The position numbers were made by a program, and so were the translations under genes. Positions 1 through 19,828 of a stretch of DNA of 19,828 nucleotides are shown here, in pieces. Within the stretch, counting starts at the first letter, position 1. Each line of letters begins with the position of its first letter. The stretch lies in the IMG/VR virus record IMGVR_UViG_2874920711_000008; one strand, given 5' to 3'. Under the pieces are notes generated by a model that was given only the letters and a program-made list of their open reading frames with translations, made no database searches and had not been told where the DNA came from. The DNA is from a virus (taxonomy: Duplodnaviria; Heunggongvirae; Uroviricota; Caudoviricetes).

Positions 1-813
1 TTACCAGCGGCCGGATGCGCCGCCCCCGCCGCTAAATCCGCCGCCACTTGAGCCTCCACCGGAACCGCTGTTGTCTGAATGATAACTTCTACCTGATGCT
101 CTTTTCTGAAGTACACATAAACAGGTAAAGACCATAAATATGGTGAAAGTAAAAAAGAAGGAAAATACAGCAATGGAAAAAGTTTTATCAGAGAACAGGA
201 ATAAATCTAAAAGATAGATTGCTGAAATACAGACTCCACTTTTACATGCGCGACAAAAATTACTGCCTTGATGAAAAAACCAGAAAGGGAAGAACATCAC
301 TGCAAATACCCAAAAAATAGCAAAGTAATAATGATCAGTGGAAGACGTTGATTCACTTTCTGAAGGATTAGCCGGATATTGGTGTTGTGAAGTGAGTTGG
401 TTATTCAAAGCGATTATAGCTAACTCTAATCCCTGAGCTAATTTTTGTTGTTTAAATGCGGGTATCATGTTGCTACGGATGATATCTCCAGCCAGAGCAT
501 CGGTTACCTTTTCTTCCAGCCCATAACCTACCTGGATGCGGACAGTGCGATCCGACCAGGCAACAATGATCAGTATCCCATCATTACGTTTGGCATCTCC
601 TAAACGCCAATTGTCAAAAACTCTTGTAGCATATTGTTCAATTGTCTCGTCTTTGGTTGTGGGAACAATTAATACAGCAATTTGCACTTGGGTATTATTG
701 AAAATAGATTCTAACTTGTGCGTCAGTTCTTTCTTTTCTTGTGAGTTTAAGCGTAAGCGCCCCATCAGCGACGTCTTGTGAAAATTGTCCTGTCTGGCAA
801 CAATCGCGCCCAT
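1..813 (-). CDS. ygcG: TPM-domain membrane protein (YgcG-like), 5'-truncated by the IS66 element; the first ~20 codons (753-813) and the ATG at 811-813 lie inside the IS left end
   Basis: 270-aa ORF ending at the window edge (stop = 1-3). From residue ~21 it has a TPM-domain-like core ([10 protein letters not shown]...[12 protein letters not shown]...[31 protein letters not shown]), then hydrophobic segments and a Gly-rich tail ([19 protein letters not shown]). No signal peptide or domain N-cap. Family assignment is from memory. Confidence 0.6.
753..763. repeat. IS66 left terminal inverted repeat (GTAAGCGCCCC)
   Basis: Exact 11-bp inverted match to 3449-3459; similarity beyond 11 bp is weak. 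Confidence 0.8.
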
Positions 814-834
814 CTATATTGATGGACACGAACG

Positions 835-1509
835 ATGAATTCCCAGACAACAAAAGATATTCCCTGCTTCCGTTCTTATTTGCCTGATGCCCTGCGTTTA
901 AGATTTGAAGATAAACTGACCATCCGGGCCATCGCTCAGCGTCTGGGTCTCAGTCATTCCACAATACATACGCTTTTTCAGCGATTTCTTGCATCCGGTA
1001 TCGCATGGCCATTGCCCGATTCAGTTTCATTCGCTCAACTTGACGCCATCCTTTATGCCAACAGAAAGAAGGAATTAACAGAGCCTCAAATCAGAGAAGG
1101 CTCATGGCGAAAAGAACGGCGAACCAGCTATAGCCGTGAATTTAAGGTCCGTCTGGCTAAGCAGGCGTTACAGCCTGGGGCTGTTGTTGCCCGGATCGCC
1201 AGAGAACACGATATCAATGATAACCTGCTGTTTAAATGGAAAAGCCAGTACGAGGACGGCTTACTGAGCGATGATGACATACAGGAATGCATGCCTGTCC
1301 CGGTGGCACTGACTGATACGCCGGAGCCGACCAGACCAGTTACAAATCCCTTCTGGCGTAACAAGCATGATGAGCGCCCTGAGGGGGCTCCCGGAAACGT
1401 CCCACGGTGCGAGCTGCATCTTAAATCAGGTGTGGTAAAACTGTTTGACCCTCTCACTCCGGAACTGTTACGGGCGCTAATCCGCGAAATGAAAGGGGGT
1501 ATCCGATGA
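835..1509 (+). CDS. tnpA: IS66-family accessory protein TnpA (orfA); true start may lie downstream of 835
   Basis: The C-terminal ~130 aa (RRTSYSREFKVRLAKQALQPGAVVARIAREHDINDNLLFKWKSQ...) look like IS66 orfA; stop overlaps the tnpB start (ATGA at 1506-1509). The N-terminal ~90 aa is an extra predicted HTH-like segment. No clear SD before 835. Confidence 0.65.
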   Translation: MNSQTTKDIPCFRSYLPDALRLRFEDKLTIRAIAQRLGLSHSTIHTLFQRFLASGIAWPLPDSVSFAQLDAILYANRKKELTEPQIREGSWRKERRTSYSREFKVRLAKQALQPGAVVARIAREHDINDNLLFKWKSQYEDGLLSDDDIQECMPVPVALTDTPEPTRPVTNPFWRNKHDERPEGAPGNVPRCELHLKSGVVKLFDPLTPELLRALIREMKGGIR

Positions 1510-1852
1510 TAACGCTGCCGACCGGTACCAGAATCTGGATCATCGCTGGCATCACAGATATGCGTTGTGGCTTCAATGGCCTGGCTTCGAAGGTGCAGAA
1601 CACGCTGAAAGATGACCCGTTCTCCGGGCATATCTTCGTCTTCCGGGGCCGCAGTGGCAAAATGGTGAAAATACTGTGGGCCGATCGTGACGGGTTATGC
1701 CTGTTCGCCAAACGCCTGGAACGGGGCCGCTTCGTCTGGCCGGTGACCCGGAAGGGAAAGTGCACCTGACGCCAGCTCAGTTATCCATGCTACTGGAGGG
1801 GATCGCGTGGCAACATCCCAAACGGACAGAACGGCCTGGCATCCGGATATAA
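1506..1852 (+). pseudogene. tnpB: IS66 TnpB, reading frame broken near 1750-1760
   Basis: MITLPTGTRIWIIAGITDMRCGFNGLASKVQ...ILWADRDGLCLFAKRLERGRFVWP matches the IS66 TnpB pattern. The ORF stops at 1769, but the next frame continues VHLTPAQLSMLLEGIAWQHPKRTERPGIRI to a stop at 1850-1852. The break sits in CCCGGAAGGG. Confidence 0.8.
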
Positions 1853-1871
1853 CCCGTGATAAAACAAGGGA

Positions 1872-3427
1872 ATGAACAATGAACTCCCCGATGATATTGA
1901 GCTGCTTAAAGCCATGTTGCGTAAGCAACAGAGTCGGCTTCGACAGTATGCCTGTCAGGTCGCGGGCTATGAGCAGGAAATTGAACGGCTGAAAGCGCAA
2001 CTCGACAGGTTGCGTCGTATGTTGTTCGGCCAGAGTTCAGAGAAAAAGCGTCATAAGCTTGAAAATCAGATCCGACAGGCAGAAAAACGACTGTCGGAAC
2101 TGGAAAACCGGCTGAACACAGCCAGAAATCTTCTGGAAGATGCATCGTCAGTCACAGATTCACCTGACACCAGTCCCCGTCAGAAAACCCGATCGCCAGT
2201 AAGCCTGAATCCCCGGGAGACACATCGCCTTCTGCCTGCTGAAACCAGTTGCCCGGCCTGTGGAGGTGTTCTGAAAGAAATGGGGGAAACAATCTCAGAG
2301 CAACTGGATATCATTAATACCGCCTTTAAAGTTATCGAAACCATACGTCCCAAACTGGCCTGTAGCCGGTGTGATGTCATCGTTCAGGCACCACTTCCCC
2401 CTAAACCGATCGAACGCGGTTATGCCAGTGCAGGGTTACTTGCACGGATCCTGGTCAGCAAATATATGGAACATATCCCTTTATATCGCCAGTCAGAAAT
2501 ATACGCGCGACAGGGCGTGGAGCTGAGCCGTAATACCATGGTGCGCTGGGTATCAGAAATGGCAGACAAACTCCGTCCTCTGTATATAGCGCTGAATGAC
2601 TATGTTCTGGAGGCAGGAAAGGTGCACGCAGATGACACTCCGGTGAAAGTACTGGCCCGGGGAACGGAAAGACGAAAACGGGTCGTCTGTGGGTATACGT
2701 CAGGGATGATCGTAATGCGGGTTCATCCCTGCCGGCAGCCGTCTGGTTCGCGTATTCGGCAGATCGCAAAGGAGAACATCCGCAGCTCCACCTGGCAAAG
2801 TATCAGGGCGTACTGCAGGCTGATGCCTATGCAGGTTATAACGTACTGTACGAAACGGGCCGGGTGAAGGAAGCCGGGTGCCTGGCCCACGCCCGCCGAA
2901 AAATCCATGACGAGGATGTGCGCCGTCCGACAGAAATGACTCAGGAAGCGCTCAGACGGATAGCAGAGTTATACGACATAGAAGCGGAGATACGTGGCAG
3001 TCCGGCAGAGGAACGGCTTGCAGTCAGAAAAGCCAGAAGCGTCCAGTTGATGCAGTCGTTGTACGACTGGATACAGTTGCAGAGGAAAACGCTGTCGAAA
3101 CATGCGGAGATGGCGAAGGCGTTCGACTATATCCTGAATCACTGGAATGCGCTGAACGAGTTCTGTCGTGACGGCTGGGTGGAAATAGACAACAACATCG
3201 GTGAAAACGCGTTACGATCGGTGGCGGTTGGAAGAAAAAATTATCTCTTTTTCGGCTCAGACAAGGGAGGAGAAAGTGCGGCGATCATCTACAGTCTGCT
3301 GGTCACCTGCAAACAGAACGAAGTGGAGCCGGAGGACTGGTTGCGCGAAGTGATCGAGAAGCTCAATGACTGGCCGTCGAACCAAGTGCATGAACTGCTG
3401 CCCTGGAACTTCTCGTCTGTAAAATAA
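1872..3427 (+). pseudogene. tnpC: IS66-family transposase TnpC, one frame break near 2655-2660
   Basis: The N-terminal ORF (1872-2867) is recognisable up to ...[11 protein letters not shown]; the C-terminal part continues in another frame as [62 protein letters not shown]... and joins ORF 2864-3427. The break is in a GCCCGGGG run. Combined length is ~518 aa. Confidence 0.85.
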
Positions 3428-3459: not shown

Positions 3460-3460
3460 T

Positions 3461-7855: not shown

Positions 7856-9682
7856 CCGTCTCAGCACGGAAATCATGATCAACCTTGCCGGGAACCTGAC
7901 CGCCAAAGCCCGGCAGTACGGTGCAAACATGTCGCAGTTCGCCCGGAACAACCAGAAGGCCATGCGCCTGGTCAAAGCCACAACGGAGGCTGCCGGGCGC
8001 AGTCTGGATGCGCTTGGCAACCGCTACACGGCGATGATTGCCGGGTTCGGTGGTGGTATGACCCTTAAAGGCCTGACAGATTTTGATGCGCAAATCCGCC
8101 GTGCGGGTACAAATGCAAAACTGACCGATGAGCAGGTATCCCGTTTAAGAAAAAACATCCGGGAAACCGCCAGAATGTCAGACATTCGCCTCAGTGCCCA
8201 GGTCTTACTGGAAGGCCAGGATGCACTGTATGGCCTGACCGGTAAGCCGGAATTTGTTGAAAAAAACATCCGCAATCAGGGCTGGCCACGCAGGCATTCG
8301 GGACTGCGCCACAGGATGCCGCGGCACTGATGGCACAGATGTCCGAAAAACAGATTGAAGCGCCTCAGGAGGTTGAAGGCATGTTCGACCGCTTCTACCA
8401 CCAGTTTTCCATTGGTTCGGTTGGTGTGGATCAACTGGCGCGTGTATCAGCAAAACTGTTTTCGATTTATACCGGTGGTGGCAAAGAGGCGATAGCCCAG
8501 TTGGGGCACTTGAACAGATGCTGGCAAAAACAACCGGCTCTGCGGATGAAGCGGTGACCGCGCTGAACAGTATCTGGAGTGAAGTCACCCGAAAAGACAA
8601 TATCAAGTTTCTGAAAAGAAACGGGGTTGATGTGCTTGATCCTGTCACAGGAAAACCCCGTCTGCCTTATGACGTAATCAGAGACGTTGTCAGGCGGGCA
8701 AAATTTAATGAGCAGAACTTGCAGGATGTTTTCGGGGATACTTCCATGCGTGGATTAAGGGCACTGCTCAGTGAAGACGCCCTTCAGCTAACAGAAAAAA
8801 TGATTTACGCCCCGGTTGAATCCGGTGCCATGAGAAAAGCTGCGGAGAAAAACGCCCGGAGTTTTCAGTCTGCGATGCAGTCCCTGAAGAATGAATATGA
8901 GGTTTTTGCTGAAAAAAATCTGGCAAAACCCGTTCAGGACCTGGCGGATGCCATCAACAGCGTGGACCAGAACTGGTTGCAGGTCGGTAAATATATGGCA
9001 ATTGCGCTGGGTGGCATTATCGCCGTACGTAAGACGTACAAGCTCGGTAAAACCATCCACGACATCATGAATCCCAAAGGGAAAGGCAAAGGGATACCCG
9101 GCGGTATTACGGATGTTTTCGGCTCCGGCGTGATGCCGGTGTATGTGGTCAATATGGGCAGTGGCGGGATGAACGGCAATGTCGGTGGTCTGCCGGATGC
9201 GCCGGATTCATCACGCAATCCCGTAACCCACGCAATCCACGAGGTCCGGGTAACCGCGGAGGTAATGCGGGCAAAGGCGCTGGCATCATCGCCGGTGCCC
9301 TGGAATTTTACGATTTTCTGACCACGCAATACGCCCTGCCGGGTGAGATTGACAGTCTTACAAAATCCGTGGCCGGTGATGCCAGCGCCAGCCCGTGGGA
9401 GCGCGAGTTCGCGCAACAAAGCCAGGATAACCAGAAAGCGCTCGAGTCCGTCTGGCGTAAGGTAACGGACTGGTTTAATTCGCTGGGTGACAAGAACATT
9501 GCCGACCCGCGACCGTGGGCAGGTATGCAACCCACACAGAATTATCCTTTCCTTCCGCAACAATTGCAGGGGAAATCCGTGTGGTGGTGGAAGGTGATGC
9601 CCGCGTGAAAAGCGTCAGAGTGGATCAACCCGGCGTCAGACTCAGTGCGCAGGCTGGCGTCACCAGCGTGGAGCAGGGTTAA
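7842..9682 (+). pseudogene. Tail tape measure protein (Mu gp42-like), split into at least 4 ORFs
   Basis: Co-linear ORFs 7842-8330, 8330-8557, 8518-9321 and 9369-9608 in frames 0, 2, 1, 0, plus a final stretch ...VVVEGDARVKSVRVDQPGVRLSAQAGVTSVEQG ending at 9680-9682 (TAATG overlap with the next gene). Total ~613 aa. The adjacent frame reads cleanly across the first break (...GLATQAFGTAPQDAAALMAQMSEKQ...). Confidence 0.75.
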
Positions 9683-10953
9683 TGACAACGAGCAACGGTA
9701 AATGGGACGGGCTGCGCGACGCCTCGTTTCGTGGCGTCCCCTTCTTTCTGGTGGATACGGAGGGCACCGGTGGTCGTCGTGCCATTCCCCGTGCTTATCC
9801 CCGGCGTGAAACCGCCTGGACGGATGATAACGGGGCCGTTCCGGGGCAACAGCAGATTAACGCAAAGCTGCCAGGTAAAAACTTCCGGGATGATTTAAAC
9901 GCCCTTTTAGATGCGCTCAATACCCCGGCCCGGCGAGCTTGTCCACCCGTGGTTCGGGATACAGACCGTACAGGTTGGCAAGGTCACCCATCGCCTCTGC
10001 ACGGAGGAAGACGGCATTGCGTATGTCACCTTTGAAGTGTTTGAGGCAGGCGAGCGCCTGTTCCCGTCTGCGGCGGATAACACGCAGCAGGAAGTGCTGA
10101 CAGGCATTGATGCGGTGAAAGCCGCCATTGACGATGGCGACTGGTTCGGCGCACTCGACGGGCTGGGTGACATGGCCGACAGTTTTCTGGCCGATATGGA
10201 AAACCTTGTGGCTAACCTGCCCACGTTACCGGCAGCACTGAATCAGTGGATGGACAGGCTGAAGCATTTTAAGGCGATGGCCGGAACCCTCATTGCCACA
10301 CCGGGGCGTCTGGTCAGTGAGCTGTCAGCACGGGTGGAAGATATTGCGGGCCTTGTGACGGAACCACCCGAAGCACTGGCGGTTTACACGACATTACGCA
10401 ACCAGTGGGCCGGAGAACGTGCCAGGCAGATTGCCACCGGCGCACTGCCGGAAGATATCACCGTGAAGCCCGGCAGCGTGGCAGACGGCAACCCGGCTTT
10501 GCCATCGGGCTGTCACCGGATTATCAGCCGGTATCTGACAGCCTGCAAAAGAACATTGACGACTTCCGCCAAGTGGTTGTGCTGGGAGCCCTGCTGGGAC
10601 AGGCCAGTGCCGTGGCCTCGATGACGTTCGATACCCGTGATGCGGCGTTATCTGCCGGTGACACGCTGGCGGCTGAACTGCATGAGCAGGCGGTGGCGGC
10701 GGTGGAAAACAACCAGCGGACATTGTGGCGAACGCTGCGCGATTTACGGCAGGCCGTGATTACGGATGCCCGCGAGCGTGCCGCCCGTCTGCCGGAAACC
10801 CGGCAGGTGACGCTGACCACAACCACCTCTGCCGCATTGCTGGCATGGCGCGAGCATGGTGACACACGCCGACGGGATGAAATCGTGCAGCGTAACCGCC
10901 TGCGTCATCCGTCATTCATCCTACCGACGCAACCTGTGGAGATCACCGACTGA
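9682..10953 (+). pseudogene. N: DNA circularisation protein (Mu N-like), frame breaks near 9925 and 10490
   Basis: The N-terminus MTTSNGKWDGLRDASFRGVPFFLVDTEGTGGRRAIPRAYPRRE matches the DNA-circulation N-terminal family, and ...PGELVHPWFG... continues in the next frame. Three ORFs (9682-10035, 9911-10624, 10405-10953) join through breaks in CCCCGGCCCGG and AACCCGGCTTT. Confidence 0.75.
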
Positions 10954-12018
10954 TGGAATCCGTGATTCTTACCGTTGACGGCAAACTGTGGGAAGGCTGG
11001 ACGGAAATGTCCGTCAGCCGTTCCCTGAAGGCGATTGCCGGTGAGTTTGAACTCAGTGTGACAACCCGCTGGTCAGCGGCGGCACCGCGCGTGATTCGTG
11101 AGGGGCAACCCTGCACGGTCAGGCTGGGCGCAGATACCGTGCTGACGGGGTATATCGATGATTTTATTCCCGGCTATGAGGCTGAAAACGTGGAGATTCG
11201 CGTCATGGGGCGCGATAAAACCGGCGACCTGGTGGACTGCTCTGTGGTGCATTCGTCCGGGAAATGGAAAGGCGTGCGGCTTGAACAGGTGGCGGCTGAT
11301 GTCTGCCGCCCGTTCGGGATAACCGTCATCACGGAAACCCCGACCGGGGAGGCATTTGCGTCTGTCGTTCTGGAACAGGGTGAAACGGGCTTTGAACTGC
11401 TCGACCGGCTGGCAAAACAGCGCGGCGTTCTGCTGACGTCTGACGGCGCGGGTAACCTGATTATCACCCGCGCCTCTTCCGTTCGCGCGGGCGTGTCACT
11501 GGTGCTGGGAAAAATATCCTCGCCGCCCGTGGGCGCTTCAGCTGGCGGGAGCGTAACAGCCAGTACATCATCAAGGGCACCACCAGTGCCCGTGGCAAAC
11601 TGTGGGACAGCCAGCCTGCCCGATGGTGGGCGGTCGCCAGTACATCACCGAAGCCCCGGAAATTAACCGTTACCGCCCGCGCATTCTGGTCAATGAAGAC
11701 AGCCTGACCGTGGGCGGGCCAGCATTCGCGGGAATGGTACAAAGCCCGGATGCTGGGAGAGTCCCGCACGACGGAAATCACGGTGGCAGGCTGGCGCGAA
11801 CAGGGCGACAGCGGCCCGCTGTGGCAGACCAACCGCCTTGTCGATATCGACGACAGCATTCAGAACCTGAAAACCACCTGGCTGATATCCGGGGTGACAT
11901 GGACGGATGGCGCACAGGGAGGATGACGGTTCTGGCGCTGGTTCCGCCTGAATCACTGGACATGCCGGAAATGAAAGCGAAGACGAAAAAAACAAAGGCG
12001 GTGGCCACATGGGATTAA
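10953..12018 (+). pseudogene. P: Tail/baseplate protein (Mu P-like, gp44), several frame breaks between ~11500 and ~11930
   Basis: A 237-aa N-terminal ORF, then plausible protein sequence alternating between frames (ENILAARGRFSWRERNSQYIIKGTTSARGKLWDSQ; RQYITEAPEINRYRPRILVNEDSLTVGG; EWYKARMLGESRTTEITVAGWREQGDSGPLWQTNRLVDIDDSIQNLKTTWLISGVTWTDGAQGG; MTVLALVPPESLDMPEMKAKTKK). Stop at 12016-12018. Confidence 0.6.
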
Positions 12019-12991: not shown

Positions 12992-13953
12992 AATCCCCAC
13001 GCTGGGCAAACTGATTGCCGACGGCGAAAAAGATATTGCGTATGAACTCGGCCTGCAAAAGCTGCCGCCTGTCAGTGTTGAGCAGGCGCTGAACGTGTCA
13101 TTCAGCAGTCAGGTCCGGGATTTATACGACCATCAGAGCTGGATTAAGGACCAGATAATCCCGTCCACCACGTCTGATGATGAAACCATTATCAAAACAG
13201 CAAAGTATGAAGGCGTTATCCGCAAGCAGGCCACCTTTGCCAGCGGGCGGGTGACCTTCACCAGTCAGTCCCCCTTCCGGCAGAAACCCGGATGCAGTCC
13301 GACACGAACCAGGTGTATCAGGTACTCACGTCCGGCGAGGTGCAGGACGGCGAGGTCACCGTCATCGTGCAGGCTGAAGAAGCCGGTGTGGAGGGCAATC
13401 TTGCTGCCGGTGCCGTACTCACCCTGCTGTCCCCGCTGCCCGGAACGGCCAGCACAGGCGCGGTGGCTGAAGGTGGCATCACCGGTGGCGCAGACACTGA
13501 ATCCATCGCAGCGCTGCTGGACCGTCTGCTGTATGTGCGCCGCAATCCACCGACAGGCGGCGCGTTGCATGACTACGTGATATGGGCGCGTGAAGTGCCG
13601 GGCGTCAGCCGCGCGTGGGCGTGGGATGCATGGCACGGCCCGGCACGGTCGGGCTGGCATGGCTTTATGATGACCGGGAAAACATCGTGCCAACCCGCGA
13701 AGACCTGAAGACAATGGAGCAGTATCTGTTCTGCCACAAACACCCGGCCACGGGCGTGATGGTGGGTAAACCGGGCGGCATTGAGGTCTGGCCGGTACAG
13801 GTCAGGCTGAAGAAAGTCAGCATATCCATCCGTCTGACACCGGACAGCCTGGCGAACAGGAGCGCCGTCCGGGCAAACCTGACCGCGTTACAGAAGACAC
13901 TGGCACCCGGTCAGACGCTGCCGGGCGGTTTACCTGTATTGATGGCGTCATGA
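12981..13953 (+). pseudogene. Baseplate J-like protein (Mu gp47-like), split into three ORFs
   Basis: ORFs 12981-13580, 13292-13708 and 13615-13953 are co-linear in frames 0, 2, 1; the real-looking parts (MPYEIPTLGKLIADGEKDIAYELGL...; ...EVQDGEVTVIVQAEEAGVEGNLAAGAVLTLLSPLPGTA...; ...LKTMEQYLFCHKHPATGVMVGKPGGIEVWPVQ...) follow one another. Confidence 0.7.
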
Positions 13954-14051
13954 CACCATTAATCAGCGAACGCACCCGTGAGCTGGAATGCCTGCTGAAG
14001 CATTACCGGCTGGCGGGCACGGAATATGAATATTATTACACCGGAGAATAA
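13950..14051 (+). CDS. Short ORF (33 aa, MTPLISERTRELECLLKHYRLAGTEYEYYYTGE) between the baseplate J gene and the fibre gene
   Basis: ATG overlaps the gp47 stop (ATGA); its own stop lies 3 bp before the fibre ATG. It sits where a Mu gp48-type gene would be but is far too short. Coding status is uncertain. Confidence 0.25.
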   Translation: MTPLISERTRELECLLKHYRLAGTEYEYYYTGE

Positions 14052-14162
14052 TTTATGTTTTATGTGGATAACCCGACGGGTGTGCCGGTAATGCCACCTG
14101 TCGCGGCTGAATTAAGCAAAACAACGCTTTATTTCACCGAAGGCGGGAACGGTATTCCGCCC

Positions 14163-14172
14163 ACGTATCCGG
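14163..14172. repeat. Left copy of the 10-bp direct repeat CGTATCCGGG (target-site duplication of the IS4-family element)
   Basis: Identical 10-mer lies immediately outside both CTGA...TCAG termini (14163-14172 and 15472-15481). Confidence 0.7.
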
Positions 14173-15471
14173 GCTGAGGGATCCCCACAAAATTACTGCT
14201 AATAAACCAGCACCATATTTCGGTAGGTTCTGGACAGATGGTTTAGAACTGTGCTCAGTACTGTTCGTCTTAAAATAAGTGGCGAGTGTCGAAGAACATT
14301 CTTCGCTAACGTCAGATATGAGATAACCCGCCGGGATTTAATGCTGTTAGCCTGATATTTCAGGTGTAACCCTTTATTTTCAGCGTGATAACCGAGTAAC
14401 CACATTACGATAGTGCTCAACGTTGCCAGCAGACTCAGAACCAGAATTCTTCCTGTTGAACGACTTTTGCTGGCCCGAAGACCAAATCCGAAGCGCCCGT
14501 TCTTTTCATCACGAAAGTTTTGCTCTATCTGCATTCGCCGACTGTATAACTTGATGATTTCTCGCGCTCTGAAGTCATTTGTACTGCTGAAGATCAACCA
14601 GGCTTCTTTTGCTGATTTGCTCTGTTCTTTGTCTGTTTTGTTTAAACCACTCTGACCTTTCGAACGTTTCTTTTTTCGCCCTTTTGCCGATTTCTTATAG
14701 GTGTAAAAATGCCCCCGGATGCTTTTTTTCCTTTCTTTAACCAGCCTTCCAGCCCCATATATTCCGGTGTTTTACATTCAGGGCTATCCGACACTTTTAA
14801 CCATCTTTCAGGCGCGTTATCGAGGCAATACTGAACGTTATTTCTGATCCGACCAATAAAATCCCAGCCCAGAGAAGTAATATGGTGAAACCATGCGCTC
14901 TGAAATCCAGCATCCGTGACAATAATAACCCTGGCATCGGGGGCAGGGATTGAGCAAGGGAATCAAGGAAATCATGTTGTATCAATGGATTATTTTGTTT
15001 TTCAGAAGGAACAACCTTACTCAATAACGGAATGGAACGCCCGTCACACAGAAGGCTGGCACGAAGAACATGATGCTCCTGGAGGGATAGCCACTCCAGT
15101 CTACGGCTATTACACATAAAGATAACTGCCGTGTCAGCATTGAAGTGATATTCCTGAAAATCATTGGAATATCGCGATGGAGCGCCTCATTACCCATGAG
15201 GCGATCAATACGTTTGCTCTTATTCTTAACTTGTGCATTACCCGGGAAAAAACGTCCGATACTGGTCAGCGTCAGAGATGCTCCGTTGATTAACGCCACT
15301 GTGGCATCCATCAGGGCATTTTGTCGGTACTGATGAAATGGTGCTAAGGCATCCCGGAAGAAATTCTGACATACTTTATGAACAGGCATAGCAGTGATCT
15401 CATTGAATTGTTGGCACAAATCAGTAGATCACATAATGCTATGTCTGTCTCGTTTTCTGGGGATTCCTCAG
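14173..15471 (-). mobile_element. IS4-family (IS10-like) insertion sequence, 1299 bp, inserted in the tail fibre gene
   Basis: Termini CTGAGGGATCCCC (14173-14185) and GGGGATTCCTCAG (15459-15471) are inverted repeats with one mismatch and resemble the IS10 outside end (CTGAGAGATCCCC). Flanked by the 10-bp direct repeat. Contains a minus-strand IS10-like transposase. Confidence 0.8.
14199..15389 (-). pseudogene. IS4-family (IS10-like) transposase, in at least 4 frame segments
   Basis: Minus-strand segments align in order to IS10 transposase: N-terminal (...TLTSIGRFFPGNAQVKNKSKRIDRLMGNEALH...VDWS), middle (...HVLRASLLCDGRSIPLL...VIIVTDAGFQSAWFHHITSLGWDFIGRIRNNVQY...) and C-terminal (...IFSSTNDFRAREIIKLYSRRMQIEQNFRDEKNGRFGFGLRASKSRS...). 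One break sits at a T7 run (14723-14729). Confidence 0.8.
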
Positions 15472-15481
15472 CGTATCCGGG
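15472..15481. repeat. Right copy of the 10-bp direct repeat CGTATCCGGG
   Basis: See 14163-14172. Confidence 0.7.
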
Positions 15482-16372
15482 GCCGGACTGGTTTAATATT
15501 ATTCAGTCTGAATTACTGGAAATACTCCGGCAGGCAAATATCAAACCGGATAAAAACACAACCGACCAGATTATGACAGCGCTGAAAAAACTGTTTATTA
15601 CGAACAGTGGTTCAGCCGGAGCTATTGCCGGATTAACCGGTCAGAATAATACATTCCCTTATTTTACCGGCAAAGACACAATGGCATTAACACCGCTCAG
15701 TGCGTTTGTGCGCAGTATTCTCGGGAAAAACAGCGCCAGTGAATTTATTAAAGCAATCGGCCTGTCACCAGACATCCTTTTATCAAAAGGACCGGTGACA
15801 GCATTAAGCAGTACAGCACAGGGCAATGCAGGACTTCAGATGTATGAAGTGTACAACAACGGCTATCCCACAGCTTATGGCAATGTTCTGCATCTGAAAG
15901 GCGCGGCAGCATCTGGCGAAGGCGAACTGCTGATTGGCTGGAGTGGCACGAGCGGTGCACATGCTCCGGTTTATATTCGCTCAAGGCGTGATACCACCGA
16001 TGCAGTCTGGTCTGAATGGGCGCAGGTGTTTACATCAAAAGACAGCTTCAACGCAGCATCCGCCACAAAACTACAGACCCCACGCAAAATTAACGGTACG
16101 GCATTTGATGGCACCAGAGATATCACCATCAGCAGCACCGATTCTGGTGCAGTACGTGATTTCAGATACACCAGCGAAGTGTTTCACAATCCCGGTGGTA
16201 ACGAAATTTCCTGGGTATTCCGCGCGCCTTCAGGGTGTATTTTGTCAGGTATTAACGTTCAGGAAACTGGCAAAAGCTCTGCGGATAACATCGGGGGTGT
16301 GTATTACAAACAAACTCAGATTTATATCAATGGCGGATGGCGCACGGTATCCGGCTAATTAAGGAGAAAATA

Positions 16373-16903
16373 ATGGAACTCAGAAACGTCACGCGTTATT
16401 ACCCGGAAGAAATGCCTTATGGTGAAAACATTCAGTATTTCCGCAGTGAAGACGGACAGGATTTTTATGAATCACTGGATAAATTCACGAAGAAATACAA
16501 ATTATGTATTCACCCGGAAACCGGCGTGATTTATTCAATGGCAGAAGACGTGTCTCGTCTTTATCCTGTTGGTTTTACCATTGTGGAAGTGGATGAGCTG
16601 CCGGAGGGTTTTGACATCGAAGCCAACTGGTATTACCGGGATGGCGAAGTACTGCCAGTTCCTGTTGATTATTCGAAACTGGCAGAAAAGCAACGTCAGC
16701 GCTTGCTGAATGAAGCAAAGGAAATCACTTCCGACTGGAAAACCAAGCTGGAGCTGGGCACCATCAGCGACGATGACAAAGTCCGTCTTACGCAGTGGAT
16801 GGAATATATCAAAGCGGTGAAGGTGCTGGATTTAAGCACTGCTACCGATGAAATCTCCTTTGATGCCATCAACTGGCCGGAGCGTCCCGATGCCGCAGCT
16901 TAA
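16373..16903 (+). CDS. Tail fibre assembly chaperone (Tfa; Mu U / P2 G-like)
   Basis: AAGGAG SD 7 bp upstream of the ATG at 16373; ~176 aa; directly downstream of the fibre gene; Tfa-like features (...PEGFDIEANWYYRDGEVLPVP..., C-terminal ...DEISFDAINWPERP). Confidence 0.75.
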   Translation: MELRNVTRYYPEEMPYGENIQYFRSEDGQDFYESLDKFTKKYKLCIHPETGVIYSMAEDVSRLYPVGFTIVEVDELPEGFDIEANWYYRDGEVLPVPVDYSKLAEKQRQRLLNEAKEITSDWKTKLELGTISDDDKVRLTQWMEYIKAVKVLDLSTATDEISFDAINWPERPDAAA

Positions 16904-18296
16904 AGGTGTGATTAAAACGCCCACGGGAGAACCGCTGGGCGGCGCAACCATTACACTGACCTCCCTGCACAACCGTGCAGGGATTCTGAAAGGCGTTTTC
17001 AGCCACGTCACCACACAGAGCGGGGAGTATGACTTCCCCGTTCTGCCGGGCGTGTACAGCGTTCGCCTGACACAGAGCGCACAACGCCTTTCAGAAATCG
17101 GTGTCATTCGCGTTTATGAAGATTCAGCGGACGGTTCGCTGAATGATTTTCTGGGCGCAACTGATATTGACCTGCGTCCGGAATCCCTGAAGAAATTCGA
17201 AGAGCTGGCGCAACAGGCGCAGCAGAGTGCCGGGGCCGCAGCCGGAAACGCACAGCAGACGGCGCAGGATGTGGCGGCAGCCGCAACGGCCCGTGATGAT
17301 GCACAACGTTTTGCGGAGAAAGCCCGACAGGATGCAACCGTCACAGCTGAGGACAGAAAGGCCACTGCGGAAGATGTGACAAGCACAGGAGCAAATGCAG
17401 CCGCAGCCGGACAGAGCGCACAGGATGCCGCAGGTTATGCCCGCGCAGCAGAACAGGCCAAAAATGACATTGATGCTGCGCTGACCGGCACTCTGAAAAT
17501 GGCTAACCATCTGTCAGAAATCGCAGCAGCAGGCGAAAAGGCACAACAGAAGTCCCGGGATAATCTGGGGCTGAAAAGTGCGGCCACGATGGAAGCACAG
17601 AGCGACATTTACGACCGGACAAAAGGCCGTCTGGCGATACCCGGCGCATTCGGCTTTGGGTGTGCTTTTCTGCCTGAAGATGTTATCCGTTTTGACACTA
17701 AGAGTGATTTCCTGGCCTGGGTAAGGAATGCGCTGCCAGGTGAGTATTCCGTTGCTGGCCCCTACGGCATCATCATACCCGACACACGGTTTGAAGGGGG
17801 GCTCAGCATCCGGTGGACTGATGCACGCCCTGAGACAACAGAACCGAGGTACAGAGCCAAATCCCTTACTTTTTACGGCATTAACGGCCCCATTTATCAC
17901 ACCCGCTACTGCTACTGGCCCATATCCAGACTGACTGGCTGGGTGAAAATAAATATAACCACAGAAGATATTATTTACAGAATCGTGGCGAGCTCTGTCC
18001 GCAACAGATGGGGAGACCCTGACATTGGCGGGCTGATTATTGCTGCGTACCAGGGAAAAGCTGACGGTGATAAAGACATCAGACTTGTCAGGGGGCGGTC
18101 ATACAGAGGCTCACGACTGGGACCGGTGGGGATTTCAGCGCCCTGTACTCCCACCGGAACGCATATAGTATACCCACAATATTTCATTACGGGATGTTCA
18201 GAGCATTCATTACCGGGGTCATATTGCGCCCTGTCCGGGGTGCCGGATACATATGTCTCTGGCGCAATGCTTGGGCTTTTTATTCGCACATCGTGA
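16890..18296 (+). CDS. Second tail fibre protein with a lambdoid Stf-type N-terminal domain
   Basis: Intact 469-aa ORF from the ATG at 16890 (GGAG SD upstream; overlaps the tfa 3' end). N-terminus MPQLKGVIKTPTGEPLGGATITLTSLHNRAGILKGVF...VYSVRLTQSAQ...IRVYEDSADGSLNDFLGA resembles prophage side-tail-fibre N-termini, followed by an Ala/Gln-rich stretch. Confidence 0.7.
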   Translation: MPQLKGVIKTPTGEPLGGATITLTSLHNRAGILKGVFSHVTTQSGEYDFPVLPGVYSVRLTQSAQRLSEIGVIRVYEDSADGSLNDFLGATDIDLRPESLKKFEELAQQAQQSAGAAAGNAQQTAQDVAAAATARDDAQRFAEKARQDATVTAEDRKATAEDVTSTGANAAAAGQSAQDAAGYARAAEQAKNDIDAALTGTLKMANHLSEIAAAGEKAQQKSRDNLGLKSAATMEAQSDIYDRTKGRLAIPGAFGFGCAFLPEDVIRFDTKSDFLAWVRNALPGEYSVAGPYGIIIPDTRFEGGLSIRWTDARPETTEPRYRAKSLTFYGINGPIYHTRYCYWPISRLTGWVKINITTEDIIYRIVASSVRNRWGDPDIGGLIIAAYQGKADGDKDIRLVRGRSYRGSRLGPVGISAPCTPTGTHIVYPQYFITGCSEHSLPGSYCALSGVPDTYVSGAMLGLFIRTS

Positions 18297-18306
18297 GGAA
18301 TGCACT

Positions 18307-18872
18307 GTGGAAATTAAAAAAATCATTAATCCCCGTTATACCGAAAGTGGCGCAGTAGACTGTGACGTTTTTTTGACGACAGGGACCAGGCAGTCCCCTA
18401 CACAGCCACCGCTGATGATGTCGCTCCGACGGGTCAGCAAATCTGGCAGGAACTGCAAAGCGGCAAATGGGGTGAGATAGCCCCATTCACTGTGACACCA
18501 GAAATGCTGGAAGCGGCCAGAGAGGCCAGACGTCAGGAAATTGAAGCATGGCGCACAGAACAGGAGGCGAAGCCGTTCACGTTTGAATGGAACGGTCGTA
18601 TCTGGGATGCTGGCCCCGACTCACTGGGCCGCCTGTCCCCGGTGGTCATGCTGGCAAAATCTGTCGCGGCACAAACAAATATGACGTGGAGTGATGCGGA
18701 TAATCAGCAGGTGCAGCTGACGACGCAGGAACTTGAGGAACTGGCCACAGCGATGATACAGGCCATTGTTGAGCGCAACGATGAGATTTATCGCTGTCAG
18801 CGGGAGATGAAAGAACAACTTTCTCTGTTGCCCACACTGGACGAGGTGAGAGCGTTCAGACCAGGCGATTAA
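18307..18872 (+). pseudogene. Tail fibre assembly protein with DUF4376-like C-terminus, frame break at a T7 run (18368-18374)
   Basis: GTG at 18307 after a GAGGA SD reads VEIKKIINPRYTESGAVDCDVF; after the T7 run the next frame continues FDDRDQAVPYTATADDVAPTGQQIWQELQSGKWGEIAPFTVTPEMLEAAREARRQEIEAWRTEQEAKPFTFEWNGRIWDAGPDS... to a stop at 18872. One extra T restores a single ~188-aa ORF. Confidence 0.6.
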
Positions 18873-18894
18873 ATAATCAGTTTGTATAGTTTAT

Positions 18895-18996
18895 GACGAT
18901 CGATAGAATCATATCGATCGTCGGTTTGCATCAAGTGTGATTAAATACCCCCAGCCCTCCGGGCAGCGATATCCTGTTATTACACTGGGGGAAATT
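18895..18996 (+). promoter_or_regulatory. Putative mom-operon regulatory region: GATC-containing palindrome (18904-18931) plus a C/G-rich segment upstream of com
   Basis: Perfect 11-bp inverted repeat GACGATCGATA/TATCGATCGTC around a 6-nt spacer holds two GATC sites (18907-18910, 18925-18928); then CCCCCAGCCCTCCGGGCAGCGATATCCTGTTATTACACTGGGGG up to the com SD. Mu mom control is known to use Dam-methylated GATC sites and C-protein binding; assignment here is by position and analogy. Confidence 0.4.
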
Positions 18997-19182
18997 ATGG
19001 ACTCTGTTCGTTGTAAAAATTGCAATAAATTGCTGTTTAAAGGAGGTTTTAAGCATATAGAAATCAAATGTCCTCGCTGTAAACGTTACATTGTCATATC
19101 GAGTGCCCGGGAGCATCCCACGGAGCTGTATTGTGGGAAAAGAGAAGAAATCACGCATTCTGACAAAACCCTGCGTTATTGA
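18997..19182 (+). CDS. com: Com, zinc-finger translational activator of mom
   Basis: 61-aa [64 protein letters not shown] with a CxxC...CxxC...C arrangement, recognisably Mu Com; GGGG SD upstream; 3' end overlaps the mom 5' end. Confidence 0.85.
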
Positions 19183-19828
19183 GTATGAAGGCCGGATTGT
19201 CGGCTATGGTTCAAGGGAGCTGCGCGTTGAAACCATATCCTGCTGGCTGGCCCGCACAATCATTCAGACAAAGCATTATTCCCGCCGTTTTGTGAATAAC
19301 TCCTGGTTGCATCTGGGCGTATTCAGTGGACGTGATCTGGTTGGTGTTCTTCAGTGGGGATATGCCCTTAACCCCAACTCAGGGCGTCGCGTTGTGCTTG
19401 AAACGGATAACCGGGGCTATATGGAACTGAACCGCATGTGGCTACACGACGACATGCCCCGCAACTCTGAATCACGGGCCATCAGCTACGCGCTGAAAAC
19501 CATCAGGTTACTGTATCCGTCAGTGGAGTGGGTTCAGTCCTTTGCAGACGAACGTTGCGGGCGTGCAGGTGTTGTGTATCAGGCGTCAAATTTTGATTTT
19601 ATTGGCAGCCATGAAAGCACATTCTACGAACTGGACGGTGAGTGGTATCACGAGATAACGATGAATGCGATTAATCGTGGAGGGAAGCGCGGCGAATATT
19701 TACGAGCGAATAAGGAGCGGGCCGTGGCGCACAAATTTAATCAATATCGTTACATCAGGTTCCTGAACAAGCGCGCAAAAAAGCGACTAAACACTAAGCT
19801 ATTCAGGATTCAGCCTTACCCGAAGTGA
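19133..19828 (+). CDS. mom: Mom, DNA adenine modification (anti-restriction) protein; start uncertain (open frame from 19091, GTG at 19133 gives 231 aa)
   Basis: ...[99 protein letters not shown]... is recognisably Mu Mom; overlaps com as in Mu. The stop TGA is the last 3 bases of the window. Confidence 0.85.

Follow-up and report, generated by a model that had tools for sequence, protein, structure and literature searches.

A copy of the insertion sequence ISSfl1 very probably entered codon 40 of an S/gp49-type tail fibre gene in a Mu-like prophage by cut-and-paste transposition, with a 10-bp target duplication and loss of the fibre, in an ancestral event; the frameshifts that make its transposase gene look disrupted in the window are most likely assembly errors. 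The window referred to throughout is the whole stretch of DNA that was analysed, 19,828 nucleotides in length. The insertion sequence, the gene family and the insertion itself are already contained in public records under names such as 'phage tail protein, partial' and 'hypothetical protein'. This is a known insertion sequence and an ordinary event in the decaying prophage of an IS-rich pathogen, and it matters little outside annotation; it is usual in Shigella for IS insertions to turn prophage genes into pseudogenes. In annotation, the two parts of the fibre gene should be treated as a single pseudogene, disrupted by an IS and belonging to the remnant of a Mu-like prophage.

Insertion site and the interrupted fibre gene

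The features at the insertion site are the following (coordinates of the window):

14055-14173, plus strand: 5' part of the fibre gene, codons 1-39 and two nucleotides of codon 40, corresponding to residues 1-40 of Mu tail fibre S
14164-14173, no strand: left copy of the target duplication, CGTATCCGGG, located by script; present once in the empty-site allele of E. coli RM11911
14174-15471, minus strand (that of the transposase): element assigned by sequence to ISSfl1 (IS4 family, IS10-like group), 1298 bp here and 1301 bp in intact copies
14174-14193, no strand: terminal inverted repeat distal to the transposase start, CTGAGGGATCCCC..., with a Dam site GATC at 14180-14183
15452-15471, no strand: terminal inverted repeat proximal to the transposase start, reverse complement CTGAGGAATCCCC..., without GATC
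15472-15481, no strand: right copy of the target duplication, CGTATCCGGG, located by script and by comparison with the RM11911 empty site
15482-16358, plus strand: 3' part of the fibre gene, residues 41-331, shaft and distal domain, without frameshift or stop
16373-16903, plus strand: tail-fibre assembly chaperone (176 aa), immediately downstream; PF02413 Caudo_TAP, phrog_136 with E 3.3e-57

The fibre ORF starts with the ATG at 14055, which has a GGAG 9 nt upstream, and its translation, obtained by sequence reading and by script, leads to ...GIPPTYPG. Position 14173 is the second base of codon 40 and the left terminus of the element, CTGAGGGATCCCC, begins at 14174; its C completes the codon as GGC, and a TGA follows in frame. 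The interrupted ORF reads MFYVDNPTGVPVMPPVAAELSKTTLYFTEGGNGIPPTYPG up to this TGA and thus yields a truncated product of 40 aa. At the other side the element ends in ...GGGGATTCCTCAG with 15471 as its last base. Two perfect copies of the 10-mer CGTATCCGGG reside directly outside the two ends of the 1298-bp element; by chance, a 10-mer would match at fixed junctions with a probability of about 1e-6. The terminal inverted repeats are identical at 12/13 and 17/20 positions.

The preliminary description had proposed an IS inserted 39 codons into the fibre gene with an intact 10-bp duplication, and this is borne out by the two perfect repeats and by the empty site described below. It had correctly read the right terminus, ending at 15471, and the resumption of the fibre frame behind it, and had placed the left terminus at 14173, one base below the actual position. 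The difference matters for in silico excision: removal of 14173-15481 (1309 bp) breaks the frame, and removal of 14174-15481 (1308 bp) gives a continuous ORF of 331 codons ending at 16358. Deleting 14164-15471 is equivalent, and excising the element while keeping both repeat copies again breaks the frame.

The search for uninterrupted alleles that had been proposed led to a 996-bp allele in Mu-like prophages of E. coli. The full length of the restored gene can be aligned without gaps to E. coli chromosomes, with 97.5% nucleotide identity in strains RM11911, RM13745 and RM13752 and 97.4% in strains XJ34 and XJ6-3; a megablast search of the restored gene against the phage collection gave no match. 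The allele of RM11911 encodes a protein identical to the restored fibre protein at 325/331 residues, and its DNA reads CCCACGTATCCGGGGCCGGACTGG across the junction, with one copy of the 10-mer. The element is thus a true insertion with target-site duplication.

By homology, the interrupted gene is a counterpart of the gene for Mu tail fibre S (gp49). In the restored protein, residues 1-81 can be aligned with the identically numbered residues of the Mu protein (5yvq_A) with an E-value of 4.6e-21, the alignment including a 16-residue stretch against TWPGMDWFNIVQAELL, and the full-length protein matches phrog_1833, 'tail fiber protein', with an E-value of 8.8e-116. No family was found for the fibre protein in Pfam and NCBIfam searches. 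The gene follows homologues of gp46, gp47 and gp48 and precedes the Caudo_TAP chaperone, as judged from the annotation of RM11911 and from Pfam matches of the neighbouring genes in the assemblies L013-L017 (L014-L017 carry the same prophage as the window; L014 is AAMJ02000030, L015 is CP027027, L016 is PSSP01000001 and L017 is UYIS01000022). The order gp46-gp47-gp48-fibre-chaperone, with Com and Mom at the end of the prophage, is the same as in Mu, where S (gp49) is paired with the chaperone U (gp50). The likeness of the fibre itself is restricted to the N-terminal 81 residues: Mu S has 504 aa and the restored fibre 331 aa, and their bodies are unrelated apart from a weak C-terminal match. An invertible G segment and an invertase, as in Mu, are not annotated here; in their place lie a DUF4376 gene and a second fibre gene whose N-terminal domain is of the lambda-Stf type (PF08400), and no recombinase is annotated or matched between the fibre genes and com/mom in RM11911 and L013-L017.

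Cryo-EM of Mu shows gp49 anchored through its N-terminus to a docking loop (residues 133-155) of the wedge protein gp48 (PMC11915804). This docking role and the homology of residues 1-81 support the earlier proposal that the element separates the attachment N-terminus from the fibre body. Since the cut falls inside the N-terminal gp48-docking region, a complete, attachable fibre would no longer be formed, and fibre function would be lost. The sequence of events can be pictured as follows. Judging from its family membership, the element would have moved by non-replicative cut-and-paste DDE transposition as in IS10 and IS50, with a staggered cut of 9-10 bp in the target and repair fill-in giving the 10-bp CGTATCCGGG duplication. 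The TGA contributed by the IS terminus would then end translation at 40 residues and leave the remaining 291 residues of the fibre, i.e. shaft and distal domain, without their native start. The event would have occurred in a strain ancestral to a number of S. dysenteriae and S. boydii strains, as one of several lesions of the prophage.

ISSfl1 and its other copies

We assign the element to ISSfl1 on the basis of sequence identity. Over 1298/1301 bp it is 99.6% identical to a copy in E. coli FDAARGOS_943 (NZ_CP065615.1) that is annotated as 'IS4-like element ISSfl1 family transposase', and it shares 99.4-99.7% identity over the full length with copies on Shigella invasion plasmids (e.g. pWR501 and pCP301). 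The termini are the same, and, with three homopolymer bases put back into the window sequence, so is the DDE transposase of 397 aa. The intact transposase scores 362.8 bits (cutoff 152) against NCBIfam NF033591, 'IS4 family transposase', and matches Pfam PF01609, DDE_Tnp_1. ISSfl1 is named from Shigella flexneri. Naming is inconsistent between sources, as the original record of pCP301 calls the same element 'ISSfl3 ORF'.

Among the matching plasmid records, 68 of 107 are from Shigella, and a full-length copy is present in one of 5426 complete E. coli genomes. Relatives with 70-90% identity are widespread and occur in Salmonella, Photorhabdus, Serratia and Yersinia. When genome contigs were scanned for a degenerate pattern of the two IS ends, no Shigella copy was retrieved and only distant relatives were, from Arsenophonus, Pseudescherichia, Erwinia, Mixta, Pseudoalteromonas and a MAG; these loci proved of use solely in the comparison of hairpins. 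Most database copies of ISSfl1 reside on invasion plasmids, whereas the copy in the window is chromosomal and lies inside a prophage; the location of the database copies suggests that the inserted copy came from a plasmid.

The other copies examined are flanked by duplications of 9-10 bp, similar to the one in the window. When the element is taken as CTGAGG...CCTCAG, the duplications comprise 10 bp in the window and in FDAARGOS_943, 9 bp in pWR501 and in the plasmid of S. boydii ATCC 49812, and 10 bp in chromosome CP049278.1, in which the transposase of the ISSfl1 copy is named S. boydii. The base 5' of the left terminus is a G in 5/5 independent insertions. This invariant G may be part of the element, in which case the duplications would amount to 9, 9, 8, 8 and 9 bp, respectively. 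Whichever way the G is assigned, ISSfl1 duplications differ in length by one base, unlike those of IS10 with their strict 9 bp. The C that follows the right terminus was also considered as part of the element and is ruled out, as the flanking base is an A in two copies, namely L012 and L026, the latter a further chromosomal copy.

Age of the insertion and state of the prophage

Identical junctions are present in at least seven assemblies (L013-L018 and L020). Both junctions are identical in L013-L017, while L018 starts exactly at the left terminus of the element and has the right junction, and L020 has the right junction. Because the same junctions recur in independent assemblies, the insertion is not an assembly artefact. 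L014 represents S. dysenteriae 1012 (PMC2974192), and AAMJ00000000 is given in the literature as S. dysenteriae 1012, serotype 4. The 40-aa truncated product is encoded on 11 contigs named S. dysenteriae or S. boydii; the one source name shown for it is 'phage tail protein, partial [Shigella boydii]'.

Some of these strains also allow a relative dating. A deletion of about 556 bp that fuses the genes for baseplate J and gp48 is common to the window, L014, L015 and L017; a stretch of 19 bp, 13906-13924, is covered by both alignment pieces. L016, with 36 substitutions relative to the window over 12.9 kb, carries the insertion together with intact genes for baseplate J (358 aa) and gp48 (194 aa), and the insertion is therefore older than the deletion. 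It appears from these comparisons that several S. dysenteriae and S. boydii strains inherited the insertion from an ancestor, which makes it an event at the level of a clade and not of a single strain. The earlier wording of a 'recent simple insertion' can thus be kept as far as 'simple' is concerned, given the perfect duplication and the empty site; 'recent' is relative and does not apply in the sense of strain-specific, as at least seven assemblies share an insertion that predates the 556-bp deletion. The insertion can be used as a clade marker in some S. dysenteriae and S. boydii strains.

The region around the fibre gene is collinear with the Mu-like prophage of RM11911, which encodes, in this order, a gpT-family major head protein, a gp436-family protein, sheath, tube, a DNA circularisation protein, baseplate proteins, GP46, baseplate J, a YmfQ family protein, the fibre, a tail-fibre assembly protein, the second fibre, the DUF4376 protein, Com and Mom. 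The window counterpart of the gp436-family protein matches Pfam Phage_Mu_Gp36, and the counterpart of the YmfQ family protein in L016 matches Pfam Phage_Mu_Gp48. The prophage in the window is a remnant. It starts at 3460, just past the position of the major head gene, and its left half is missing; between it and a chromosomal gene for a TPM-domain protein (1-813, minus strand) resides an IS66-family element with TnpA, TnpB and TnpC (about 835-3427). A frameshift in the gp44-like baseplate gene is common to L016 and L017 and is therefore taken as real, and gp48, the docking partner of the fibre, is mostly deleted in the source strain. With the left half lost, the gp44-like gene frameshifted and most of gp48 gone, the loss of the fibre is moot. 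The ISSfl1 transposase gene is oriented against the tail operon, and the insertion would accordingly be polar on the genes for the chaperone and the second fibre.

Competing readings of the element and its fibre-side end

Three further features bear on how the element and its effects are to be read:

14199-15389, minus strand: ISSfl1 transposase gene (397 aa when intact), with 1-bp run deletions at 14752, 14938 and 15080
15378-15453, plus strand: strong predicted hairpin over the transposase start codon (15387-15389, minus strand), with one GATC per arm (15396-15399 and 15427-15430)
15441-16358, plus strand: hybrid ORF of 305 aa that has its ATG within the IS end and continues in frame through the fibre body; called in sister assemblies

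The preliminary description spoke of an IS10-like element. IS10 and IS10A, known from Tn10 and Tn1999-type elements, share with ISSfl1 a similar size, an IS4-family DDE transposase of about 400 aa and a stable hairpin overlapping the transposase start. The 13-bp termini, CTGAGG(G/A)ATCCCC, are identical to those of IS10A at 12/13 positions at each end, one base differing per end: the distal end CTGAGGGATCCCC corresponds to CTGAAGGATCCCC, both with GATC, and the proximal end CTGAGGAATCCCC to CTGAAGAATCCCC, so that the GATC is found solely at the end far from the transposase start in both elements. In spite of these similarities there is next to no probability that the element is IS10 itself or a remnant of Tn10, a possibility already refuted by the identity values. 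The transposase shares a mere 34.8% amino acid identity with that of IS10A over 368 residues, and family matches to IS10A and ISVsa5 range from 35 to 37%, as opposed to the near-identity of the DNA to ISSfl1 noted above. The typical target duplication of IS10 is 9 bp, compared with 10 bp for the insertion in the window, and the IS10 hotspot consensus, NGCTNAGCN, is unlike the target sequences of ISSfl1. Furthermore, only one copy of the element is present in the window, and the 1301-bp copies lack passenger genes, the transposase being their only annotated gene. The relationship to IS10 thus appears real but distant, and 'IS10-like' is fair as the label of a group, supported by the termini, though not as the name of an element that proves to be ISSfl1.

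Another reading takes this ISSfl1 copy as old and decayed, with a transposase pseudogenised by three frameshifts, and the insertion as a fossil that is not potentially mobile. It draws on the state of the gene in the window, where, relative to an intact copy, C5 is shortened to C4 at 14752, G6 to G5 at 14938 and G3 to G2 at 15080, and the gene is split into four ORFs of 132, 50, 106 and 132 aa. The window is identical to CP026824.1 (GCA_002949875.1), with 100% identity over the 13,456 bases compared, and this assembly deviates from its relatives in a peculiar way. Relative to L017 there are 19 one-base length differences between 8278 and 15080, all of them deletions in the window and all in G/C runs, next to 4 substitutions, no insertions and no affected A/T runs. 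Sixteen of these 1-bp deletions lie outside the element and none of them recurs in the sister assemblies; the same pattern of G/C-run deletions is seen against the more distant prophage of RM11911. Such a pattern argues for under-calling of homopolymers in the assembly and not for mutation. The orthologous element has 1301 bp with all three bases in L014, L016 and L017, L016 and L017 have the 397-aa transposase called, and L015, which also has homopolymer gaps, lacks only one of the three bases. Run deletions aside, the IS copy in the window differs by no substitution from those in L014, L015 and L017 and by one from that in L016. We therefore regard a decayed element as quite unlikely. The three frameshifts are very probably errors of the CP026824.1 assembly, and the real copy of ISSfl1 most likely encodes an intact 397-aa transposase. 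The same under-calling makes the homologues of sheath, tape measure, gp43, gp44, gp45, gp46 and gp47 look fragmented in the window. The dense 1-bp deletions in G/C runs of CP026824.1 cause false frameshifts, the three in the transposase gene among them, and the frameshifted genes of the window should not be taken as biology.

A third group of readings concerns the hybrid ORF at the fibre-side end of the element, which makes an N-terminally truncated fibre protein formally possible. Besides the 305-aa version there is a longer one of 326 aa with an ATG at 15378. The exact 305-aa protein is encoded on 4 contigs ('MULTISPECIES [Shigella]') and a one-residue variant on 7 (S. dysenteriae), and the database names are 'hypothetical protein [Shigella]' and 'phage tail protein [Shigella dysenteriae]'. 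In exact protein look-ups the 305-aa ORF and the 176-aa chaperone were matched; the 326-aa ORF and a 482-aa ORF (16848-18296) were not, because gene callers picked other starts. It is conceivable, and in our view very unlikely, that the ISSfl1 end drives expression of the hybrid ORF and that the resulting anchorless, truncated fibre protein is kept by the Shigella host for some function. Very little probability attaches to the broader notion that the insertion was retained as useful, be it through an IS-driven hybrid of 305 or 326 aa acting as an anchorless receptor-binding protein or through selected silencing of the fibre operon. Such a scenario would fit the presence of an ATG within the IS end that shares the frame of the fibre body, as well as the 877 bp downstream, which are still open after divergence of the lineages, and an outward promoter is known for IS10 at the end that corresponds to the fibre-side end of ISSfl1. 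However, a promoter and terminator scan of 13900-15700 revealed no consensus sigma-70-like outward promoter and nothing meaningful otherwise, and no obvious ribosome-binding site precedes the ATG at 15441 or that at 15378. The open frame is explained by very low divergence, with 1 substitution in the fibre part relative to L017, and the several other inactivating lesions of the prophage point to neutral decay.

A related, less exotic reading concerns the conserved hairpin at the same end. It may be an element for fold-back control in the style of IS10, resembling RNA-OUT, and may serve the ISSfl1 group as an antisense regulator of the RNA-OUT type so far absent from Rfam; a scan of 13900-15700 against Rfam, RNA-OUT included, gave no match at E<=1. 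The 132-nt stretch 15340-15471 is predicted to fold at -50.1 kcal/mol (z = -6.35), and 0 of 200 shuffled sequences were as stable. The hairpin is kept in four ISSfl1-like elements, with relatives from Arsenophonus, Pseudescherichia and Mixta, and 6 of its 38 predicted pairs are changed on both sides, which is thin evidence with four sequences.

One-base deletions and lesions of the baseplate genes

Compared with the sister assembly UYIS01000022 (locus L017), the window carries 19 one-base deletions between positions 8278 and 15080 and only four substitutions. All 19 deletions fall into runs of G or C and the window is the deleted side every time, while not a single one-base deletion relative to L017 is present in window 15081-19828. 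Most of the tail and baseplate genes as well as the IS transposase are fragmented in the window by these deletions, a pattern that has the appearance of under-called homopolymers in assembly CP026824.1. The affected positions are:

8278, 8502, 9219, 9568, 9926, 9928, 10491, 11618, 11715, 11729, 11916, 12276, 12620, 12744, 13269, 13638, 14752, 14938, 15080

The gene for the gp44-like baseplate hub carries a frameshift that, unlike these run deletions, is apparently genuine, since it is common to L017 and L016, the latter being the locus of sister assembly PSSP01000001. Relative to E. coli RM11911, the reading frame is lost after ...VSLVLGK, resulting in a product of 251 instead of 356 amino acids.

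L017 4569-5640 (also in L016): frameshifted gp44-like gene
window ~10953-12018: its counterpart

At window 13906-13924, about 556 bp are deleted relative to E. coli RM11911 and L016, such that the gene for baseplate protein J (gp47) is joined to the end of gp48 and most of gp48 is lost. The alignment pieces flanking the lesion overlap by 19 bp, which suggests a deletion between short repeats. The loss is shared by the sister loci L013, L014, L015 and L017 and is absent from L016, where the ISSfl1 insertion already exists. It may be added that gp48 is the docking partner of the interrupted fibre.

Features of the ISSfl1 element

A strong hairpin (z = -6.35) with GATC in both arms covers the start codon of the ISSfl1 transposase. 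Three other genera have ISSfl1-like elements in which it is conserved, some of its pairs being altered on both sides, and Rfam returned zero family matches for it. The structure may be a control element of the RNA-OUT or fold-back type.

window 15378-15453, plus strand: hairpin at the transposase start
L003 2255-2364, L004 2795-2904, L007 365-474: counterpart hairpins in distant ISSfl1-like elements
window 15441-16358 (or 15378-16358): hybrid IS-fibre ORF

The hybrid ORF begins within the end of the IS and runs in frame into the fibre body; its product is already present in public protein sets as WP_004996298.1, 'hypothetical protein [Shigella]'.

At all five ISSfl1 target sites (window 14164-14173 and the independent copies in L001, L011, L012 and L026), GG or GGG adjoins the left IS terminus, and the duplication varies between 9 and 10 bp among these copies. 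This could reflect a preference for certain targets or ambiguity in the terminal base. The naming of the element as ISSfl1 or ISSfl3 differs from source to source: in the original annotation of pCP301 (AF386526.1 / NC_004851.1) it is an 'ISSfl3 ORF', the NCBI pipeline assigns it to the 'ISSfl1 family', and a Photorhabdus relative is listed as 'Transposase ISSfl3' in UniRef.

Edges of the prophage remnant and the second fibre region

1-813, minus strand: chromosomal TPM-domain gene
~835-3427: IS66-family element (TnpA 835-1509, TnpB 1506-1769, TnpC split into 1872-2867 and 2864-3427)
16890-18296: second tail-fibre gene, encoding a prophage tail fibre N-terminal domain (PF08400)
18492-18872: DUF4376 gene, after the second tail-fibre gene

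The IS66-family element sits between the chromosomal TPM-domain gene and the middle of the Mu-like prophage. The prophage junction lies at ~3460, Mu-like homology begins directly past the position of the major head gene, and the prophage lacks its early and head half in the window. The second tail-fibre gene and the DUF4376 gene occupy the place of the invertible G segment of Mu, and no invertase was seen. In L016, the second fibre is broken up into two genes (224 and 234 amino acids). Com and Mom follow the DUF4376 gene, and the Mom stop codon forms the window end. Just to the right of it, directly past Mom, L013-L015 and L017 contain an IS4-type element (Nterm_IS4 and DDE_Tnp_1; L017 13560-14906) that is missing in L016. 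The element is followed by a type VI secretion region (IcmF, PAAR).
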